A DNA stretch of 64,000 nucleotides. Origin: a phage. The notes under the pieces are model-generated. The model made no database searches, had not been told where the DNA came from, and saw only the letters and a program-made list of their open reading frames with translations. Made by a program: the position numbers and the translations under genes. Where the stretch lies: the NCBI GenBank assembly GCA_012747475.1, contig GCA_012747475.1_3928.1. The stretch is one strand, 5' to 3'. Each line of letters starts with the position of its first letter. Position 1 is the first letter of the stretch. Positions 25,505-34,044 of the stretch are shown here, in pieces.

Positions 25505-25505
<1 letters not shown>

Positions 25506-26974
25506 TGGCAGGATTAACTACAACAGGATTACAAACTCTAAGATATCAGGAAATTTTTGATAATATCAAATCAAGACTTCTTAGAGATATTTCACCAAAC
25601 CTTGACGTTTCTGAAGATAGCCAATTAGGTCTCTTCCTAGCTTCAATTGCAAGGTCTTTAGCAGATACACATGAGATTCTATCAGAAATCTATGACGGCG
25701 GGACAATTGACAAGGCTGAAGGATTTAACCTTGATGATATCACAGCTTTGAATGCTGTATACAGATATGTTGCTCAGGCAACAAGGGGTCAGGTTGAGTT
25801 CACTGGAACAACTGGTGCTACCATCTCTTCAACAACAAGATTGAGAAGTACTGCTGGAAATATCTTTTATCCAGTTAACAATATTACCCTTACCCCATCA
25901 TATTGTGTTGAAGCTGTTCTTGAAGTTAACTCTTTACGAACTGATGCAGATTATGTTATTATTATTGATAACGTTATTTTCTCATATAAACCAACCTCAT
26001 CAGACACAATTACCACACTACTAACTAAATTAGCAGAGGCTATTAATGGTGGTATTGTAGCAAAAGCAGAAGTTATCAATGATGGAGCCTCATTAAGAGT
26101 CTATAAAGATGAGGGTGATATTATTGCAAGAACAAACCCTATGGTTGTTACTGCGACAACGTTTCTGACATTTACAAAGATTACAACTATCTCAGATGTA
26201 GTAGCTGAAGAGGTTGGTGCTATTCCTGCTTTAGCTGGGACTCTTATTGAGATTGAAACCACTGTTGATGGCCTTGACAGCATCTATAACAGGTATGACT
26301 TAACAACTGGTAGAAACGAAGAAACTGACACAGAACTTAGACAGAGGTATTTAGAATCCTTAGCAGTTACTGGTGTAGGGACTTTGGATGCAATTGTAGC
26401 TGCTGTTAAAAGGGTTCAAGGTGTCTCAGATGCTTCAGGTGTTGAAAATGATACTGAAGAGACGAACTCAGAAGGTCTTCCACCAAAATCTTTTAAGATT
26501 GTCGTAGTCGGTGGTCAAAATGATAATGTTGCTCAAGCAATCTGGGATACAAAACCTGCTGGTATTAGAGCTTACGGCTCAATTTTTGGTACAGCCCATG
26601 ATTTAGGTGGTTTAGCACATAATATTTATTTTAGCAGACCAACACCAAAATACGCATTTGTTAAAGTCTCTTACTCTTTATATGACGAAGAGAGCTTGAC
26701 AATCCCTGAAGAGGATATCAGAGACAGTATTGTACAAGGTATTAATGCCTACGGAAGAACTCTTAAGGTTGGTAATGACGTTATCCCTAACAGAATCTAC
26801 GGATATATCTATGATGTAATTAAAGGTATTGAGATTAATGAGGTGAAAGTAGCATTATCAAACAGCCAATCAGTTCCACCTAGTGACGGACAATATACTA
26901 CAGCAAGAATTACTGTTGACGGTGACCAATATACTGTTTGGGAAAGTAGCCAGTATACCATCACTAAGGAGTAA
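25505..26974 (+). CDS. baseplate protein J-like (putative)
   Basis: 489 aa; position after W-like gene. Confidence 0.5.
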
Positions 26975-26976
26975 TA

Positions 26977-27831
26977 ATGTTTGAAAAGATTGATAGTGTT
27001 TATTATAAAACACTTGATGAAAGGACTGTAACACAGTTTAAAGATAAATTTATCTATACAAGTATCTTGAAAGCAATCACTGATGAGCTACAAACATTAG
27101 AGGATGTTTGCTGGCAGATGCACACAGAGAGAAATATCAGGACGTCAGTAGGCCAACAACTTGATAATATTGGCTCACTGATTAAAGTTCCTAGACCTTT
27201 AGGTGCAGATGATGAAACATATAGAGCTATGCTTTATATCCAAATCTTCCTAAGACGCTCTGACACCACCCCAACATTCTTGCAAAAAGCAATTATGACA
27301 CTATATGGTGCAACTTTCTCTCAGATTTTTGAGCATATTACTCCTAAGACTGGTGGTATCGTTATCCGTATCAACACTAGAAAAAGCGTTCTAGATGCTG
27401 CATATACGCTGTCAAAGATTTCTGCAACAACTACTGGCTCCGCTGTTATCTTAAGAGATGTTACTTTAAATGGGACTGCTTGGACACCTGTAGAGGTTGC
27501 TGATTCATCACTTGCTATTGTTGATGATAAAGAGAACTGGTTTGTAACTGATGCTAACAGAGGTCTTGTCACAAATAATACTGGTGGCTCTCTGGAGTCC
27601 AACTTAGTAGGTAGTCTTACAGATGCTGGTGTTATTGATGGTTACTTTAGGGTTGACAGAACAGCAAACTCACAGAGTGATGATTATATGACTGTAGATA
27701 GGTCCAATAATAGTGGCTATTTCATCGTTGGTAAAGAAGCTATTGCAGGTGGTGCATATGGAATCATGGCTGAGGTTGCACAAATTGTCAAAGGCAGAAA
27801 AGATAAATCACAACAAGAAGGAAATTCTTAA
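26977..27831 (+). CDS. baseplate/tail protein (gpI-like, putative)
   Basis: ORF track. Confidence 0.5.
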
Positions 27832-28133
27832 TGGCAGTTTTAAATTGGTCTACAAATGAAGTAGATACTGATGGTAACCAGTTAAAAGTTTTACCACCAC
27901 CGGAAGTTCAAGAGACAGGTCTTTTAAAGGGTGAACCTATGGGTAGACAGTGGTTCAACTATATTATCAACTACCTGCTGAATAAAGTAAATGGCACTGT
28001 TGGTGAAGTTCGTTCATATGCAACTGAGCAACCAGATTTAGTAGCTAATGGCTGGAATCTCATTAAGTCTGAGACAGGGACTGCATCAACAAGTACAAGA
28101 AACCTTTACACATATGAATATGTAGGAGCTTAA
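27831..28133 (+). CDS. hypothetical tail-associated protein
   Basis: ORF track. Confidence 0.5.
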
Positions 28134-28135
28134 TA

Positions 28136-29311
28136 ATGGCAGTAGGTGAAATTCAAATTAGTGCCTTGCCACAAGCGGCCTTACCAATTGATTTGAGTGA
28201 TATCTTCCATCTTAAGCAAGGTGTTGAGGATAAAAGATGTACGCTTGAACAGTTGTTAGCACCTCACGCATCTTTGAGGAATAACCCTCATGGTGTAACG
28301 AAATCGCAAGTAGGTCTTGATAATGTTATTAACTCTCTTCAATTAGTTGCAGCTAATAACTTGTCAGACATTGTAAATGTTGCTGAGGCAAGAGCAAATC
28401 TACAAATTATGTCGTCAGAGGAAGTGAATAACTTAATTCAGCAACATATTGACGACAAAAGTAACCCACATAACACAACGAAAGCACAGGTCGGTTTAAG
28501 TAATGTTCAGAACTGGACAACATCTAATCTGTACAATGAAGATGCTGATAAGTACGCTACCGCGAAAGCAGTTAATAATTTATACAAAGCTATCCAAGCA
28601 TCATATCCAGTGGGGACTATTCATCTGTCTGTTAACTCTGCTAACCCATCCACTTACTTGCTTTGTGGAGGTACTTGGGAGTTAGTTTCTAAAGGTAGAG
28701 CACTAGTTGGTTATGATACAGATTCCAGACCTGTTGGTTCAACGTTTGGTTCTCAGACTGTAGCATTAACAAATAATAATTTACCAGCACATACTCACTC
28801 TATCTATCTAACAGGTGGTGGTCATACACACTCTGCAAGTGTATCTATCTCTAGTTTTGATTATGGTTCAAAAAGTACATCAACTTTTGATTACGGTACA
28901 AAAACGACTAATAGTGCTGGTGCTCACACTCACACGTTTAGTGGCACAACAAGTAATGCTGGTAACCACAACCATAGAGTTCCTATGAGGGGTAATGATA
29001 GGGGTGGCACAAACGCTATTACTGCATCTGCTGATGCTGGTGTTGGTAATGCTATGTATACTGATTTAGCTGGTGCTCACACCCATAGCTTCTCAGGTAC
29101 AACTGCATCATCTGGTGCTCATAGCCATACTGTCGCAATTGGTGCTCACAGCCACACTGTTAATATTGGTTCGCACAGTCATACAGGCACTGTTACTGTT
29201 TCTAGCTCTGAGCATACACACTCAGGGACATCTGGTTCTGTTGGTGGTGGTCAAGCTTTCAGTGTTGAGCAGCCATCTTTTGTAGTGTATGTGTGGCAGA
29301 GAACAGCTTAA
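28136..29311 (+). CDS. tail fiber protein with His-rich HxH repeat tip
   Basis: C-terminal AHTHS, GAHSHTV, GSHSHTG, SEHTHSG repeats and shared ending ...AFSV...WQRTA. Confidence 0.7.
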   Translation: MAVGEIQISALPQAALPIDLSDIFHLKQGVEDKRCTLEQLLAPHASLRNNPHGVTKSQVGLDNVINSLQLVAANNLSDIVNVAEARANLQIMSSEEVNNLIQQHIDDKSNPHNTTKAQVGLSNVQNWTTSNLYNEDADKYATAKAVNNLYKAIQASYPVGTIHLSVNSANPSTYLLCGGTWELVSKGRALVGYDTDSRPVGSTFGSQTVALTNNNLPAHTHSIYLTGGGHTHSASVSISSFDYGSKSTSTFDYGTKTTNSAGAHTHTFSGTTSNAGNHNHRVPMRGNDRGGTNAITASADAGVGNAMYTDLAGAHTHSFSGTTASSGAHSHTVAIGAHSHTVNIGSHSHTGTVTVSSSEHTHSGTSGSVGGGQAFSVEQPSFVVYVWQRTA

Positions 29312-29320
29312 TTTCTTTAC

Positions 29321-29341
29321 AGGGGCTTTATAGCCCCTTTT
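29321..29341 (+). terminator. rho-independent terminator
   Basis: AGGGGCT-TTAT-AGCCCCT followed by TTTT. Confidence 0.5.
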
Positions 29342-29357
29342 AAGAGGAAAATTCATA

Positions 29358-31913
29358 ATGGCAGATTACAAATTGAGTCAATTAAACTCAATCGACACAA
29401 TTCGTTCAGAAGACCTATTGCACATCAGAGTTAAGAAAAGACCTGAAATGTTGGGTGATGAAGACCGCAGAATGACCTATCAAGACTTCTTAGCTTCCTT
29501 CAAACTAGAAAGGTTTGTTCAGATTGCTGGAAGTAATATGACTGGGGATTTAGGTATTGTCAAGTTACTTTATGGTGGTAAGGCAGTATTTGACCCTACA
29601 GGTTCTTCTGAAATTACTATTGGGGATGTTTTAAAGACTTTTAAACTTAATGCAAATGGTCTTAAACTAACTATTGCAGATGCTTCAAGGTCAGCAACTG
29701 TTTATCATACTCTGAATAAGCCAAGTCCTAATGAGCTTGGTATGAGAACTAATGAAGAGAATGACGCAAGATATGCAAGACTTGCTATCACAAACACATT
29801 CTCTGGAACTCAAAATATTCAAGGTGATGCTAACTTACTTCGCCTTAGAAACCAAAATGCAAATAATGCACAATACATCGAAGGTGTAAACCTAGATGGT
29901 TCGGCTAGATGGTGGGTTGGTATTGGTAGTAATGGCTCTGATGAAGTAAAGCTGTACAATAACAAATACAACTCAGCCTTGACTGTTGCAAGTAATGTCT
30001 CTGTTAATAAGTCTTTAGCAATCACTGGTCAAGTTCAACCTTCAGATTTCTCTAACTTAGATGCTAGATACTTCACTCAGACAGTTGCTAATCAGAGATT
30101 TGCACAGTTAGCTGCTAATAATAATTTCACGGGCACTAACACGTTTAGTAGAAATCTAACCATCATTAGCGACAGTGCTGCTTTAAGGTTGAAAAATGCA
30201 ACAGCTAGCTCACTATTCATTCAGGGTGTTGACTCTCAGAACACTAACAGGTGGTATGTAGGGAACGGGGATAACACAGCCTCTGTGCTGCTACACAACT
30301 ATGTACACGGTTCAAATATCAGGCTTGATAATGGCTATATCTCAGTCAACCAGAACTTCAGAATCACTGGTCAAGTTCAACCTTCGGATTGGACTAATAT
30401 TGACTCTAGATATATTCCGGCAGCAACATTAAGTACGATTGCAAGAACTAATGCACAAAATACTTTTAATGGTGTACAGAAAGTTGTTACGGATAATGAA
30501 GCCCTAATTGTGAAAAACTCTACTCAGAACAGACCATTGTATATCCGTGGTGTGGACACTGCTAATGTGTCAAGGTGGTGGGTAGGTGTTGGTGGGGCAG
30601 ATAATAATGATGTAACCCTAAATAACAGTTATTCTGGAACCCAATTGGTTCTCGGGAATACAACATCATACATTAACAAAACATTGACTATTGCTGGACA
30701 AGTTCAACCTTCAGATTTCTCTAACTTAGATGCTAGATACTTTACGCAAAGTGCTAGTGATAGTAGATACCTAAGAATCAGAAGCACTAGCTTCAATGTG
30801 GGAAACACTGATAAGTGGGCTAAAATTGCCACTGTTGTGATGCCACAATCAGCATCCACTGCTGTTATTGAGGTATTTGGTGGGTCAGGTTTTAATATTA
30901 ATACACCAAACCAAGCAGGTAAATGTGAAATTGTTCTGCGAACTTCAAATAACAATCCAAAGGGCTTAAATGTTGTTGCTTGGAGAACATCAGAGAACAC
31001 CATTATCAGGGATATTGGTTATGTGAATACTTCTGGAGACACCTATGATATTTACTATCTTGCTGGTACGTATCAAAACAGCACAACGACAAGGGTTCAG
31101 TCTTCTAGTAATGCAAGTGTACAGTTGTTTGAAGTCCCACAGACATTTGATAATGCTCCACAAGGTATTGTGAAGGGTACAATTGCAAAATACTACACAA
31201 GTTTGCAAAAACCAACCCCTTCAGATATTGGTGCATACACTAAAGCAGAAACTGACCAGAAGATTGCAGAAGCAATTAGTGACTCTACAGACCTGAATAA
31301 AATCTATCCAGTAGGTATTGTGACGTGGTTTAACAGTAATGTCAACCCAAACACAGCACTTCCTGGGTTAACTTGGACGTACCTGAATAATGGTGTTGGT
31401 AGAACTATTAGAATTGCAGCAGCAAACGGTTCAGATGTTGCTACAACTGGTGGTTCAGACTCTGTAACGTTGTCTGTTGGTAACTTACCTTCACACACGC
31501 ACAGCTTCTCTGCTACTACTTCATCATTTGACTATGGTACTAAGACTTCTAGCACAACTGGTAACCACAACCACAACAGAGGTACTATGGAGATTACTGG
31601 TTCATTTGGTTACTTCAGAAGTGACGCTAGTAGCTTCTACACAGCAAGTGGTGCATTCTACCTCGGTAGTCAGGCAGGTTCTAAAGGGTATACTGGTAAC
31701 AACTTTACTAATGGTATCCCTGTCAACTTCAACGCATCAAGAAACTGGTCTGGTGTAACGAATACAACAGGTAACCACAGCCACACTGTTGGTATTGGTG
31801 CTCACAGCCACACAGTTAGTGGTAACACAGGTGGTACTGGTTCTGGTTCTGGTTCAGCATTTAGTGTTACTAACCAGTTCTATAAGTTAATGGCTTGGGT
31901 AAGAACTGCTTAA
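29358..31913 (+). CDS. long tail fiber protein with internal repeats and His-rich tip
   Basis: 851 aa; thrice-repeated ITGQVQPSDFSNLDARYFTQ unit; C-terminal SHTHSFS, GNHNHN, GNHSHTV, GAHSHTV motifs; ends WVRTA like the upstream fiber. Confidence 0.75.
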   Translation: MADYKLSQLNSIDTIRSEDLLHIRVKKRPEMLGDEDRRMTYQDFLASFKLERFVQIAGSNMTGDLGIVKLLYGGKAVFDPTGSSEITIGDVLKTFKLNANGLKLTIADASRSATVYHTLNKPSPNELGMRTNEENDARYARLAITNTFSGTQNIQGDANLLRLRNQNANNAQYIEGVNLDGSARWWVGIGSNGSDEVKLYNNKYNSALTVASNVSVNKSLAITGQVQPSDFSNLDARYFTQTVANQRFAQLAANNNFTGTNTFSRNLTIISDSAALRLKNATASSLFIQGVDSQNTNRWYVGNGDNTASVLLHNYVHGSNIRLDNGYISVNQNFRITGQVQPSDWTNIDSRYIPAATLSTIARTNAQNTFNGVQKVVTDNEALIVKNSTQNRPLYIRGVDTANVSRWWVGVGGADNNDVTLNNSYSGTQLVLGNTTSYINKTLTIAGQVQPSDFSNLDARYFTQSASDSRYLRIRSTSFNVGNTDKWAKIATVVMPQSASTAVIEVFGGSGFNINTPNQAGKCEIVLRTSNNNPKGLNVVAWRTSENTIIRDIGYVNTSGDTYDIYYLAGTYQNSTTTRVQSSSNASVQLFEVPQTFDNAPQGIVKGTIAKYYTSLQKPTPSDIGAYTKAETDQKIAEAISDSTDLNKIYPVGIVTWFNSNVNPNTALPGLTWTYLNNGVGRTIRIAAANGSDVATTGGSDSVTLSVGNLPSHTHSFSATTSSFDYGTKTSSTTGNHNHNRGTMEITGSFGYFRSDASSFYTASGAFYLGSQAGSKGYTGNNFTNGIPVNFNASRNWSGVTNTTGNHSHTVGIGAHSHTVSGNTGGTGSGSGSAFSVTNQFYKLMAWVRTA
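30021..30076 (+). repeat. intragenic direct repeat unit 1 in tail fiber gene
   Basis: 43-nt stretch CAAGTTCAACCTTCAGATTTCTCTAACTTAGATGCTAGATACT identical to 30699..30741. Confidence 0.6.
30364..30386 (+). repeat. intragenic direct repeat unit 2 (partial) in tail fiber gene
   Basis: ATCACTGGTCAAGTTCAACCTTC identical to 30021..30043. Confidence 0.5.
30690..30745 (+). repeat. intragenic direct repeat unit 3 in tail fiber gene
   Basis: Near-identical to unit 1. Confidence 0.6.
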
Positions 31914-31992
31914 TCCCTTGTTGACTGATTGTTAAGATGGTGTTAATATTCTTTATGGGTATTCTCACCATCTTGGCTGATGAGGTGATTAA

Positions 31993-32187
31993 ATGCCTAC
32001 AATCCTAGCAATTCTTCTAAAAAATCTAGGTAGCTTCTTCTGGAAACTCATTTTATCCCTTCTGAGTGAATACATGATTGAGAAAGTGTTCTTTAAGCTT
32101 GCAAGATACCTTGCGAGTAAAACAGACACACCTATTGATGATGAGTTCGTAGATAACTTAGAAAAAGCTTTTAAGGGGGAGAAATAA
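31993..32187 (+). CDS. small membrane protein (possible holin)
   Basis: 64 aa, hydrophobic N-terminal segment, after tail fiber genes. Confidence 0.4.
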   Translation: MPTILAILLKNLGSFFWKLILSLLSEYMIEKVFFKLARYLASKTDTPIDDEFVDNLEKAFKGEK

Positions 32188-32559
32188 ATGAAGTGGCTAG
32201 AGGAAGCTTTTAAAAATAATATTGGTGCAATTGTAGTTGGTATTTTTAGTGTTATCGGGATGTATACCACTATGCAAGTTTCAAGTGGTAAGCAAGAAGT
32301 GTCTGTCACAACAAAGTTACAGCAGCTAGATAATTATTCCAAAAGTAACTATTCAGCTATTCGTGATTTACAGTCTGACATGAGACTGATTCAGCTAGGG
32401 ATGGAGAACCAGAAAGTCCAGTTAGAGAATGTTAAGGGTGAGAATGCGAAACTTACCAAAACTCTTGATAAATTCTCTGACAGTGTGAACAATCTGGCCC
32501 AATCAGTATCAGCCTTGCAAGCTATTACTGAAAAGAACACAAAGAATACTGAAAAATAA
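32188..32559 (+). CDS. membrane-anchored coiled-coil protein (possible spanin-like)
   Basis: N-terminal TM helix IGAIVVGIFSVIGMY followed by coiled coil. Confidence 0.4.
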   Translation: MKWLEEAFKNNIGAIVVGIFSVIGMYTTMQVSSGKQEVSVTTKLQQLDNYSKSNYSAIRDLQSDMRLIQLGMENQKVQLENVKGENAKLTKTLDKFSDSVNNLAQSVSALQAITEKNTKNTEK

Positions 32560-32565
32560 AATTTT

Positions 32566-32600
32566 AAGGCTCCCGTAAAAAGGAGCCTTTTTTGTTTTTA
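32566..32600. terminator. bidirectional terminator between convergent gene blocks
   Basis: 8-bp stem AAGGCTCC/GGAGCCTT followed by TTTTTGTTTTT. Confidence 0.55.
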
Positions 32601-33497
32601 CTTACCTACTGACAGAGGTGCTTCAATCTTCCCTGCATGTTGGTAGTTGTTAATACCACCAATAAAATCACTTGCAGTAAGATGTTTCAGGTCACTTAAA
32701 GTATTAAGTGGTAGACCAATCTCAAAAGTTGGTGCATGGAACTCTTCATTGTTCATCAGTTCATAAACCTGCTTCATATGGTTCTGATAAATCTGAGTAT
32801 CCCCAAAGACACCTATCAAGTACCGTGGAGTGTATCCAGTCATCTTACAAAGAACTTCTAAGATGAAGCCGTAAGACGCAATGTTAAATGGAAGTCCTAA
32901 AAAGGTGTCTACAGAACGCTGATACCATTGCAAATCCACTTCACCTTCATTAGTGATATAAATCTGAAACAGAACATGACAAGGTGCTAAAGCCATTGAG
33001 TTTGCTGCAATATCTGCTGCATTCCAAGCATTAACAAGCATGTAACGGTCTGTGATATCACCCTTCATCTTCGTTACTAAGGTCTCTAGTTGGTCTACAA
33101 CACAACCATTATGACCTTCAAAGTTTCTCCACTGAACCCCATAGATTCTCCCACCTGCATCATCTAACCAATCTTGTTCAGAAGAATAATTAGAGCTTAA
33201 CCAGCGTTTAAAATCATCTGACCAGATAGTCCAGCGTTCCCCATCATTTTCACCCCAAGTACGGTAACGGAGTTCACCCAGCTTATTCTCACCATTCAGG
33301 AACCATAAAGCTTCCCCAATAACTTGCCGTGTAAACACCTGTTTAGATGTTAAGAGTGGGAAACCAGTCCTCATATCAAAGCGAAACTTAGGTGGAGCAA
33401 ATGCAGAGATAACATCTCCAGTTCGTGTAGTACGCAATTCACCAACTGATAAAACATGGTTCAGGATATCTTTGTAACTTGTATCTGCTTGTGACAT
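32598..33497 (-). CDS. thyA: thymidylate synthase
   Basis: GFPLLTSKQV..., LWFLNGE, active-site LAPCHVLFQ motif. Confidence 0.85.
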   Translation of the reverse strand: MSQADTSYKDILNHVLSVGELRTTRTGDVISAFAPPKFRFDMRTGFPLLTSKQVFTRQVIGEALWFLNGENKLGELRYRTWGENDGERWTIWSDDFKRWLSSNYSSEQDWLDDAGGRIYGVQWRNFEGHNGCVVDQLETLVTKMKGDITDRYMLVNAWNAADIAANSMALAPCHVLFQIYITNEGEVDLQWYQRSVDTFLGLPFNIASYGFILEVLCKMTGYTPRYLIGVFGDTQIYQNHMKQVYELMNNEEFHAPTFEIGLPLNTLSDLKHLTASDFIGGINNYQHAGKIEAPLSVGK

Positions 33498-33498
33498 A

Positions 33499-34044
33499 TC
33501 AAAAGTGTCCTTTTACTTGTGGAACATAAATTTCAAAGGTTGCTTTACCATCCTCTGATGGTTTTGACTGTACCTTTGTAAATACACTGTTATCATACAG
33601 CTTCTCAAAGAAGTTTTCAAAAGGTAAATACACAGTGGCCTCTTCAGTAACTTTATGGAAAACTGTATGGAAAACTACACCAGCATATGGTAAAGCATTG
33701 ACAAGGACACCTGCACCACCAATTACAAAGACATCTTCATCAATAGAGCTATCGAGATACTTCAAAAATGCTCCAAAGGATTCTTTGCTGGCCTTAGCAT
33801 ACATTACCTCATCTTTGCCAAAGTCTATGCCTAAGTATGGTACAGAATTTGTTAAGATGAGGTTTGCACGTTCTGGTAAAGGTTTACTACCCAGAGTCTT
33901 GAAAGTCTCATTACCCATCACTACTAAGTTGTTTTTAGTGAGTCTCTTAAACTCTTGCATATCCTGTTTATGTCGAGGCCACGGCATACCAGTTGGAGTA
34001 CCAAACTCCCCATTTTCACCACTTGCAAAGATTAATTTAATCAT
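33499..34044 (-). CDS. folA: dihydrofolate reductase
   Basis: MIKLIFA...GMPW...VVMG..TFK..G.PLP.R.N.ILT pattern; adjacent to thymidylate synthase. Confidence 0.75.
   Translation of the reverse strand: MIKLIFASGENGEFGTPTGMPWPRHKQDMQEFKRLTKNNLVVMGNETFKTLGSKPLPERANLILTNSVPYLGIDFGKDEVMYAKASKESFGAFLKYLDSSIDEDVFVIGGAGVLVNALPYAGVVFHTVFHKVTEEATVYLPFENFFEKLYDNSVFTKVQSKPSEDGKATFEIYVPQVKGHF

Follow-up and report, generated by a model that had tools for sequence, protein, structure and literature searches.

The question raised by this locus is what the His-rich C-termini of two neighbouring phage tail fibres have in common, and whether the repeats of the longer fibre serve to change its length. The fibres are encoded at positions 28136-31913 of 64,000 nucleotides (nt) of phage DNA (contig GCA_012747475.1_3928.1 of NCBI GenBank assembly GCA_012747475.1; this whole stretch is called the window hereafter). 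A first-pass annotation had proposed a metal-binding tip or an intramolecular chaperone for the C-termini, and copy-number change by recombination for the repeats. On the basis of homology, motif conservation, a mosaic pattern and two deletion variants, all observed in the present analysis, it is very probable that the two genes encode baseplate fibres of a Felixounavirus, both ending in tips of the T4 gp37 type, the long one with a three-unit shaft, parts of which are exchanged among relatives by way of the linkers between units.

The two fibre genes

Two adjacent open reading frames (ORFs) on the plus strand fill the interval exactly. The gene of the short tail fibre (STF; 28136-29311, 391 amino acids, aa) is the orthologue of wV8 gene 83 and Bas63 gp26, and matches the tail fiber family phrog_2097 (E=2e-139); the gene of the long tail fibre (LTF; 29358-31913, 851 aa) is the orthologue of wV8 gene 82 and Bas63 gp27, and matches phrog_4277 over its full length (E=0). 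The DNA of the pair is 97.5% identical to wV8 tail fibre genes 83 and 82, and likewise to several E. coli O157 typing phages. Upstream lie a Baseplate_J-like gene (25505-26974), a baseplate wedge-type gene (26977-27831) and a 100-aa ORF. Synteny after the wedge genes, the PHROG matches and 27 syntenic IMG/VR loci place both genes in the Felixounavirus fibre families, and a DNA search with the fibre genes matched 240 phage records, nearly all Felixounaviruses of Escherichia, Salmonella, Shigella and Citrobacter hosts. Because the identity to wV8, the PHROG fibre families and the order of genes agree, the window is, judged from its sequence, that of a Felix O1-like myovirus (Felixounavirus) and a near-twin of wV8, and the two genes are its STF and LTF.

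A gp37-type tip in both fibres

The clusters of His-X-His (HxH) motifs seen at first reading in the two C-termini are well above expectation. STF has nine (first His at residues 219, 230, 264, 278, 315, 329, 338, 347 and 360) and LTF four (residues 713, 737, 807 and 816), against means of 1.40 and 0.15 in residue shuffles, and the observed counts were reached in 0 of 20,000 shuffles of either protein. An alignment of 221 positions between the C-terminal modules of the two fibres shows 32% identity (E=5e-17). The similar terminus also holds: STF ends in ...GGGQAFSVEQPSFVVYVWQRTA (segment ...QAFSVEQPSFVVYVWQRTA) and LTF in ...GSGSAFSVTNQFYKLMAWVRTA (segment ...SAFSVTNQFYKLMAWVRTA), with AFSV...W(Q/V)RTA in common. 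The STF end is kept in 29/29 relatives, the QFYKLMAWVRTA of LTF in nearly all. The His columns hold up in alignments of 59 STF and 69 LTF-tip homologues, being at least 90% conserved where they are not invariant, and invariance is kept even in homologues of 40-50% identity.

Both modules match the receptor-binding tip of T4 gp37 (2XGF), STF through residues 145-362 (E=1.8e-26) and LTF through residues 707-827 (E=6e-7) when single sequences are used. Family profiles give E=1e-28 for the 59 STF homologues, which reach phages of Erwinia, Yersinia, Pectobacterium and Hafnia, and E=3e-29 for the 69 LTF-tip homologues, the second alignment running from chain residue 22 to 239 (of 242). The HxH motifs of both fibres align one-to-one with those of 2XGF. 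The profile alignment pairs ...SGsaiSVTNsFIK... of the LTF family with ...NTVKNIAFNYIV... of gp37, and the conserved fibre terminus for this reason corresponds to the very end of gp37. STF passes the gathering threshold of Pfam PF21939 Gp10_C (67.2 bits, cutoff 27), and its collar matches the C-terminal domain of T4 gp10 (2FKK; E=2.6e-6); LTF scores 23.6 bits, under the cutoff, and LTF homologues carry PF21939. These alignments make both fibre tips homologues of the receptor-binding tip of T4 gp37, with its collar, HxH needle and head. In T4 gp37 the HxH motifs coordinate iron, and the chain turns round at the head and runs back to the collar, which gives the needle its six strands (PMC12609058).

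All parts of the tip can be followed along the plus strand of the window. In STF the collar, of T4 gp10/gp37 type, spans residues ~145-218 (28568-28789; the Gp10_C match, residues 154-276, is aligned to 2XGF and 2FKK). It is followed by the ascending needle (residues 219-283; 28790-28984), with four HxH at 219, 230, 264 and 278 and two FDYG(S/T)K repeats; by the His-free head insert (residues ~284-314; 28985-29077), which fills the gap between the HxH runs and presumably contacts the receptor; and by the descending needle (residues 315-364, five HxH), which together with the C-terminal segment ...QAFSVEQPSFVVYVWQRTA occupies 29078-29308. The STF head is variable in sequence among relatives and has the lowest predicted local distance difference test (pLDDT) values of the AlphaFold2 (AF2) model. 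The LTF collar (residues 641-712; 31278-31493) is 94-100% identical within Felixounavirus relatives and falls on the 2XGF collar in the family-profile alignment. Next come the ascending needle (residues 713-740; 31494-31577), with two HxH at 713 and 737 and one FDYGTK repeat, the head insert of wV8 type (residues 741-806, 66 aa, His-free, low pLDDT; 31578-31775), and the descending needle (residues 807-822, two HxH at 807 and 816), which runs with the C-terminal segment ...SAFSVTNQFYKLMAWVRTA over 31776-31910. Two HxH runs thus flank a His-free head in either fibre, 4+5 in STF and 2+2 in LTF. The homology to 2XGF supports the proposal of a shared metal-binding tip, with one refinement: the His-rich part would be the needle shaft, and the actual tip the insert without His that separates the ascending HxH run from the descending one.

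Other features of the tips vary among relatives. The (S/T)xFDYG(S/T)K repeat of the ascending strand (two copies in STF, 28850-28904; one in LTF, 31521-31544) is found in one to three copies in homologues. In loci L006, L012, L017 and L027 the STF and LTF tips are 69-75% identical to each other (42% for the window pair in the same comparison), and in Salmonella phage Si3 (L012) the head sequence GGRYGGDSIGGK(P/H)RVQVSGTEQVSS is common to both fibres; the likeness of the tips within these four loci suggests that sequence has passed between the STF and LTF genes of the same genome. The LTF tip cassette (residues 620-851; window 31215-31910) recurs in tail fibre proteins of bacterial genomes (Erwinia, Providencia, Photorhabdus, Mixta, Serratia, Morganella), at 40-49% identity over ~90% of the length and often fused to P2-type fibre domains (PF12571, PF03406); these copies are probably prophages or tailocins. 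Many 'tail fiber' proteins of 239-405 aa encoded on ~86-89-kb contigs match LTF residues 620-851 only.

Shaft units and linkers of the long fibre

The first 135 residues of LTF (29358-29762) are 93-99% identical within Felixounavirus relatives and 75-81% in Citrobacter and SUSP-type phages; by analogy with Bas63 they may be the baseplate-binding domain (PMC12609058). Three units of ~110 aa follow, at residues 136-244, 245-357 and 359-467 according to Pfam and to a purpose-built unit hidden Markov model (HMM), and match PF20744 gp37_trimer in three stretches (E=9e-81, 266.5 bits vs. a cutoff of 21.7). Unit 1 lies at 29763-30089, unit 2 at 30090-30428 and unit 3 (mapped as residues 358-467) at 30429-30758, all on the plus strand; residues 275-344 of unit 2 resemble the T7 gp17 pyramid domain (4A0T, 7BOZ; E ~1e-6).

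Each unit ends in the linker motif GQVQPSD(F/W)xN(L/I)DxRY, whose three copies begin at residues 224, 338 and 447. The first and third are nearly identical (AITGQVQPSDFSNLDARYFTQ and TIAGQVQPSDFSNLDARYFTQ), copy 2 is divergent (RITGQVQPSDWTNIDSRYIPA); the unit had been described as repeated three times, which is right for the ~110-aa units, although only the first and third motif copies are near-identical. At the DNA level motif 1 (GQVQPSDFSNLDARYF, 30027-30074) and motif 3 (GQVQPSDFSNLDARYF, 30696-30743) share an exact direct repeat, 30030-30073 = 30699-30742, the sole one of at least 30 nt in the window. It is 44 nt long, one base more than the 43 nt given in the first-pass annotation. In it 14/16 codons are the same in both copies (p ~2e-4 from codon usage alone). 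Motif 2 (GQVQPSDWTNIDSRYI) lies at 30369-30416. The 20-residue motif is most likely an inter-domain connector, comparable to the shaft linker of Bas63.

Between the third unit and the collar stands a middle domain (residues 468-640; 30759-31277, plus strand), related to distal gp37 of T-even phages and with a weak PF12604 match. By tblastn, LTF residues ~375-637, in unit 3 and the middle domain, match gp37 of T2-like and T4-like phages.

Cassette exchange among relatives

The LTFs of relatives were compared with the window LTF protein segment by segment. Within Felixounavirus relatives, the N-terminus (residues 1-135), the collar (641-712) and the C-terminus (807-851) are 93-99%, 94-100% and 87-96% identical, respectively; the same segments are lower, 68-82%, in Citrobacter and SUSP-type phages (L013, L015, L016). 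Unit cores, middle domain and head are either ~20-55% or at least 73% identical, and units 1, 2 and 3 each vary on their own, the core of unit 1 being exchanged independently of the others. Identity is at least 73% or ~24% for the middle domain (468-640), and 95-100% or ~20% for the head (741-806). The HY02-type L014 illustrates the pattern, its units being 54%, 98% and 32% identical, its tip 100%.

Along the gene, identity in DNA is highest around nt ~661-750, ~991-1080 and ~1321-1380, the positions of the linkers, and falls to 35-50% in the unit cores. Since linker DNA stays alike while unit cores diverge, the linkers may serve as homology patches. Cores fall into ~29 types at the level of at least 70% identity, freely combined among 27 phages. 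Two core types are found at different positions in different phages, at 1 in one and at 3 in the other (L004 unit 3 and L025 unit 1, 95.6% identical over 68 aa; L023 unit 3 and L021 unit 1, 82%), and no core is common to position 2 and the others, the maximum being 54%. Swaps between positions 1 and 3 that leave out position 2 fit the likeness of motifs 1 and 3 and the difference of motif 2. Motif copies 1 and 3 also resemble each other slightly more when taken from one genome than from different genomes (42.0 vs. 40.5 of 48 nt; p ~0.001 by permutation, uncorrected for phylogeny). Similarity to several phages ends at the third motif (query nt 2606-2621; residues 447-472), which borders the conserved shaft on one side and the exchangeable distal half on the other. 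As far as sequence comparison can tell, the conserved motifs mark breakpoints of cassette exchange, and exchange, not copy-number change, is the main signal.

Unit number and alternative explanations

Two variants with two units, P0038 and Salmonella phage S19cd, have junctions inside the linker motif. P0038 comes from a 23-kb metagenome contig assembled by SPAdes (ENA assembly ERZ1505402), and its DNA identity to the window gene is ~95%. The P0038 gene is without exactly 327 nt, the crossover falling within GG(T/A)CA(A/G)GTTCAACCTTC(G/A)GATT, shared by motifs 2 and 3; motif 2 forms the left arm of the deletion. In S19cd two units are followed by an unrelated middle domain, joined within the motif.

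In two other relatives the LTF is split, which may mean either a true two-subunit fibre or a frameshift. The shaft ORF of Si3 (2250-3611, 453 aa) ends where the third linker would begin, and everything from the middle domain through collar and needle to the head is encoded by a second ORF with its own ATG (3658-4593, 311 aa). The LTF of L023 is also in two pieces, of 541 aa and 259 aa.

The two-unit variants are what could be expected of a length 'accordion', in which unequal recombination between near-identical motifs often changes unit number and fibre length, to adaptive effect on host range. The exact 44-nt repeat joining copies 1 and 3 is in keeping with it, and duplication of a small domain in T4 gp37, described by Tetart in 1996, reportedly expanded host range. 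Yet the unit HMM finds three units in 119/120 best protein clusters, every intact LTF of the 27 IMG/VR loci carries three, and 249/251 phage records keep a colinear three-unit N-terminal region. Recombination through the 44-nt repeat of copies 1 and 3 would delete two units and leave a one-unit fibre as the expected product, but neither one-unit nor four-unit LTFs were seen among the surveyed clusters, loci and records. According to the Bas63 paper, repeat number is not variable across the genus (PMC12609058). Fibre length is probably constrained, because retracted fibres dock on the tail sheath (PMC12609058). An accordion is on these counts improbable. The notion of recombinogenic repeats survives in the two deletion variants, the mosaicism of the units and the 1/3 swaps, not in copy number, which is nearly fixed at three. 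Still lower is the probability that the AFSV...W.RTA end and the His-rich region form an intramolecular chaperone, which would fold the trimer and then be cleaved, as in fibres of endosialidase or T5 pb1 type. The very strong conservation of the terminus in both fibres across the genus would agree with such a module, as would the finding that no tail-fibre chaperone gene is recognisable beside the fibres, the two ORFs downstream belonging to PHROGs of unknown function. Against it, a Pfam search at E<=0.1 shows neither Peptidase_S74 nor another intramolecular-chaperone domain in either fibre, the terminus pairs with the final residues that mature T4 gp37 has in the 2XGF crystal, and a gp37-type chain returns to the collar and remains in the fibre (PMC12609058); this part of the original proposal is not supported. 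Hardly any credence can be given to the idea that HxH clusters and repeated motif are low-complexity, compositional features devoid of structural meaning. The His-rich segments do contain much G, S and T, and the low-complexity filter of BLAST masked part of them, leaving 94% query coverage in near-identical matches, but the shuffles never reached the HxH counts, the His columns stay invariant at 40-50% identity and pair one-to-one with those of 2XGF, and the repeat units belong to a curated Pfam family.

Gp37-type tips, a three-unit shaft and exchange through linkers remain the preferred reading; several observations count against it. The coverage of the P0038 contig is ~6.7x, in one assembly, and an assembly error is therefore possible. 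Synonymous conservation of the linkers, in 15-codon windows, is 0.69-0.76 vs. 0.68 for the gene, and lies below that of the N-terminal 140 codons. The collar-proximal first HxH, in NLP[AS]HTHS, has no counterpart in the T4 gp37 alignment, which bears on a metal site there. The Bas63 LTF has five beta-helix domains (PMC12609058), whereas three are recognisable by sequence in the window. Single-chain AF2 models of the STF and LTF tips, monomers built from the 59- and 69-homologue alignments, reached pLDDT 72.5 and 63.4; they display a long beta-hairpin, a weak head and a confident final C-terminal strand, at moderate to low confidence. Foldseek searches of these monomers against the PDB gave nothing at E<=0.001, only the collar resembling T4 gp10 (probability 0.97). 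Because a monomer cannot represent an interdigitated trimer, the models are uninformative on the needle and were not used as evidence for it.

Selection on linker DNA as a recombination signal was also considered, and dropped because linkers are not outliers in synonymous codon identity. A stronger claim can be made, that the linkers are built-in recombination joints which shuffle shaft cores, 1/3 swaps included, and that contact of the shaft with a variable host surface (e.g. O-antigen, lipopolysaccharide) or host defence, and not mere drift, maintains the ~29 core types of the 27 phages; this appears rather doubtful.

Proposed organization and comparison with known systems

The trimer, metal binding, the doubling back of the chain and receptor contact by the head are carried over here from T4 and Bas63. 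Each fibre would be a homotrimer ending in a receptor-binding tip of T4 gp37 type. From the collar the chain would rise as an HxH-rich ascending strand to a small, His-free head meeting the receptor, descend as a second HxH strand, and return to the collar with its C-terminal segment. At each level the three HxH of the trimer would offer six His to one metal ion (Fe in T4), in octahedral coordination, and the ions would stiffen the needle, a six-stranded beta-barrel; by motif count, STF may hold up to nine such sites and LTF four. The LTF shaft would consist of three sequence-related ~110-aa domains, of beta-helix or T7 'pyramid' type, each ending in a linker, and the linkers would provide patches of homology for recombination. 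In the usual case co-infecting relatives would trade unit cores and the distal half; occasionally a core would move between positions 1 and 3, and rarely a whole unit would be lost.

The T4 gp37 tip shares with the window fibres the collar, the His-X-His needle, the head and probably a chain that doubles back, and its C-terminal ...IAFNYIV... aligns with their ...AFSV...(F/Y).... T4 gp37 has seven HxH and needs the chaperones gp38 and gp57A. The window fibres differ in the extra collar-proximal NLP(A/S)HTHS and in head sequences unrelated to that of gp37. The shaft repeats of T4 gp34/gp37 and the T7 gp17 pyramid (PF20744; 5NXH, 4A0T) are likewise tandem trimeric beta domains with short conserved connectors; all three LTF units match PF20744, and unit 2 matches T7 gp17 residues 368-442. 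In the window LTF the three units and the tip are in one polypeptide, whereas in T4 shaft and tip are distributed over four proteins. Motif-mediated swapping of modules in the distal fibre genes (gp37/gp38) of T-even phages was reportedly described by Tetart and co-workers in 1996 and 1998. There too short conserved motifs act as homology patches for the exchange of specificity segments; unlike the T-even case, cassettes of the window type include the cores of shaft domains and not the tip alone, and cores move between positions 1 and 3.

The closest comparison is with Bas63 (JohannRWettstein), whose gp26 and gp27 have the genus, gene order, two-fibre layout and tip architecture found in the window. 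Cryo-electron microscopy of Bas63 (Sci Adv 2025, PMC12609058) revealed that both fibres end in a collar, an HxH needle and a head resembling those of gp37, and that the LTF shaft has repeated beta-helix domains joined by conserved triple-helix linkers; variability within the genus Felixounavirus lies in the tips and the shaft repeats, according to the same paper. HxH counts for STF and LTF are 9 and 4 in the window, 7 and 6 in Bas63 (PMC12609058), and in the LTF tip of the window, of wV8 type, the needle is shorter and the head, at 66 aa, larger. What the Bas63 paper calls 'substantial sequence variation' of the shaft is here resolved as cassette mosaicism with breakpoints at the linkers.

Neighbouring genes and database records

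Downstream (3') of LTF lie two small ORFs, 31993-32187 (64 aa, phrog_402) and 32188-32559 (123 aa, phrog_4038), both in PHROGs of unknown function. The S19cd counterpart of the 123-aa ORF bears a record note citing a 'holin' BLAST match, its product field reading hypothetical protein. A bidirectional terminator-like hairpin follows at 32566-32589. It was the exception in a scan for promoters and terminators over 27700-32700, in which counts were otherwise not above those of shuffles. The coding strand flips directly after the fibre module (minus strand, 32598-34044), and GC skew changes sign near 32-42 kb. The 299-aa ORF at 32598-33497 (minus) is the counterpart of an S19cd gene annotated as thymidylate synthase; the adjacent 181-aa ORF at 33499-34044 (minus) we take, by eye only, to be dihydrofolate reductase-like.

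A complete LTF of Felixounavirus type, 61% identical over the full length, is present in GU169904.1, 'Staphylococcus phage SA1' (H50), and one or two Campylobacter-labelled records also match the fibres. The matching records with Staphylococcus and Campylobacter labels are probably mislabelled or mixed.

Significance

The gp37-like HxH tip of both fibres and the repeats of the LTF shaft are already known, having been published for Bas63 in 2025 (PMC12609058). The finding is real but ordinary, because the architecture has been described structurally in this close relative, and the differences from Bas63, the two rare two-unit variants included, are matters of degree. The mosaic pattern explains the low conservation of the shaft repeats that was noted as 'unexpected' in the Bas63 paper. 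For phage engineering, linkers, collar and C-terminal segments represent natural, tolerated junctions, and therapeutic or diagnostic phages of the Felix O1 type could be retargeted by replacing a shaft cassette, the distal half or the head there. If it is true that shaft cores meet the host surface or host defence, the shaft would be, besides the tip, a determinant of host range.

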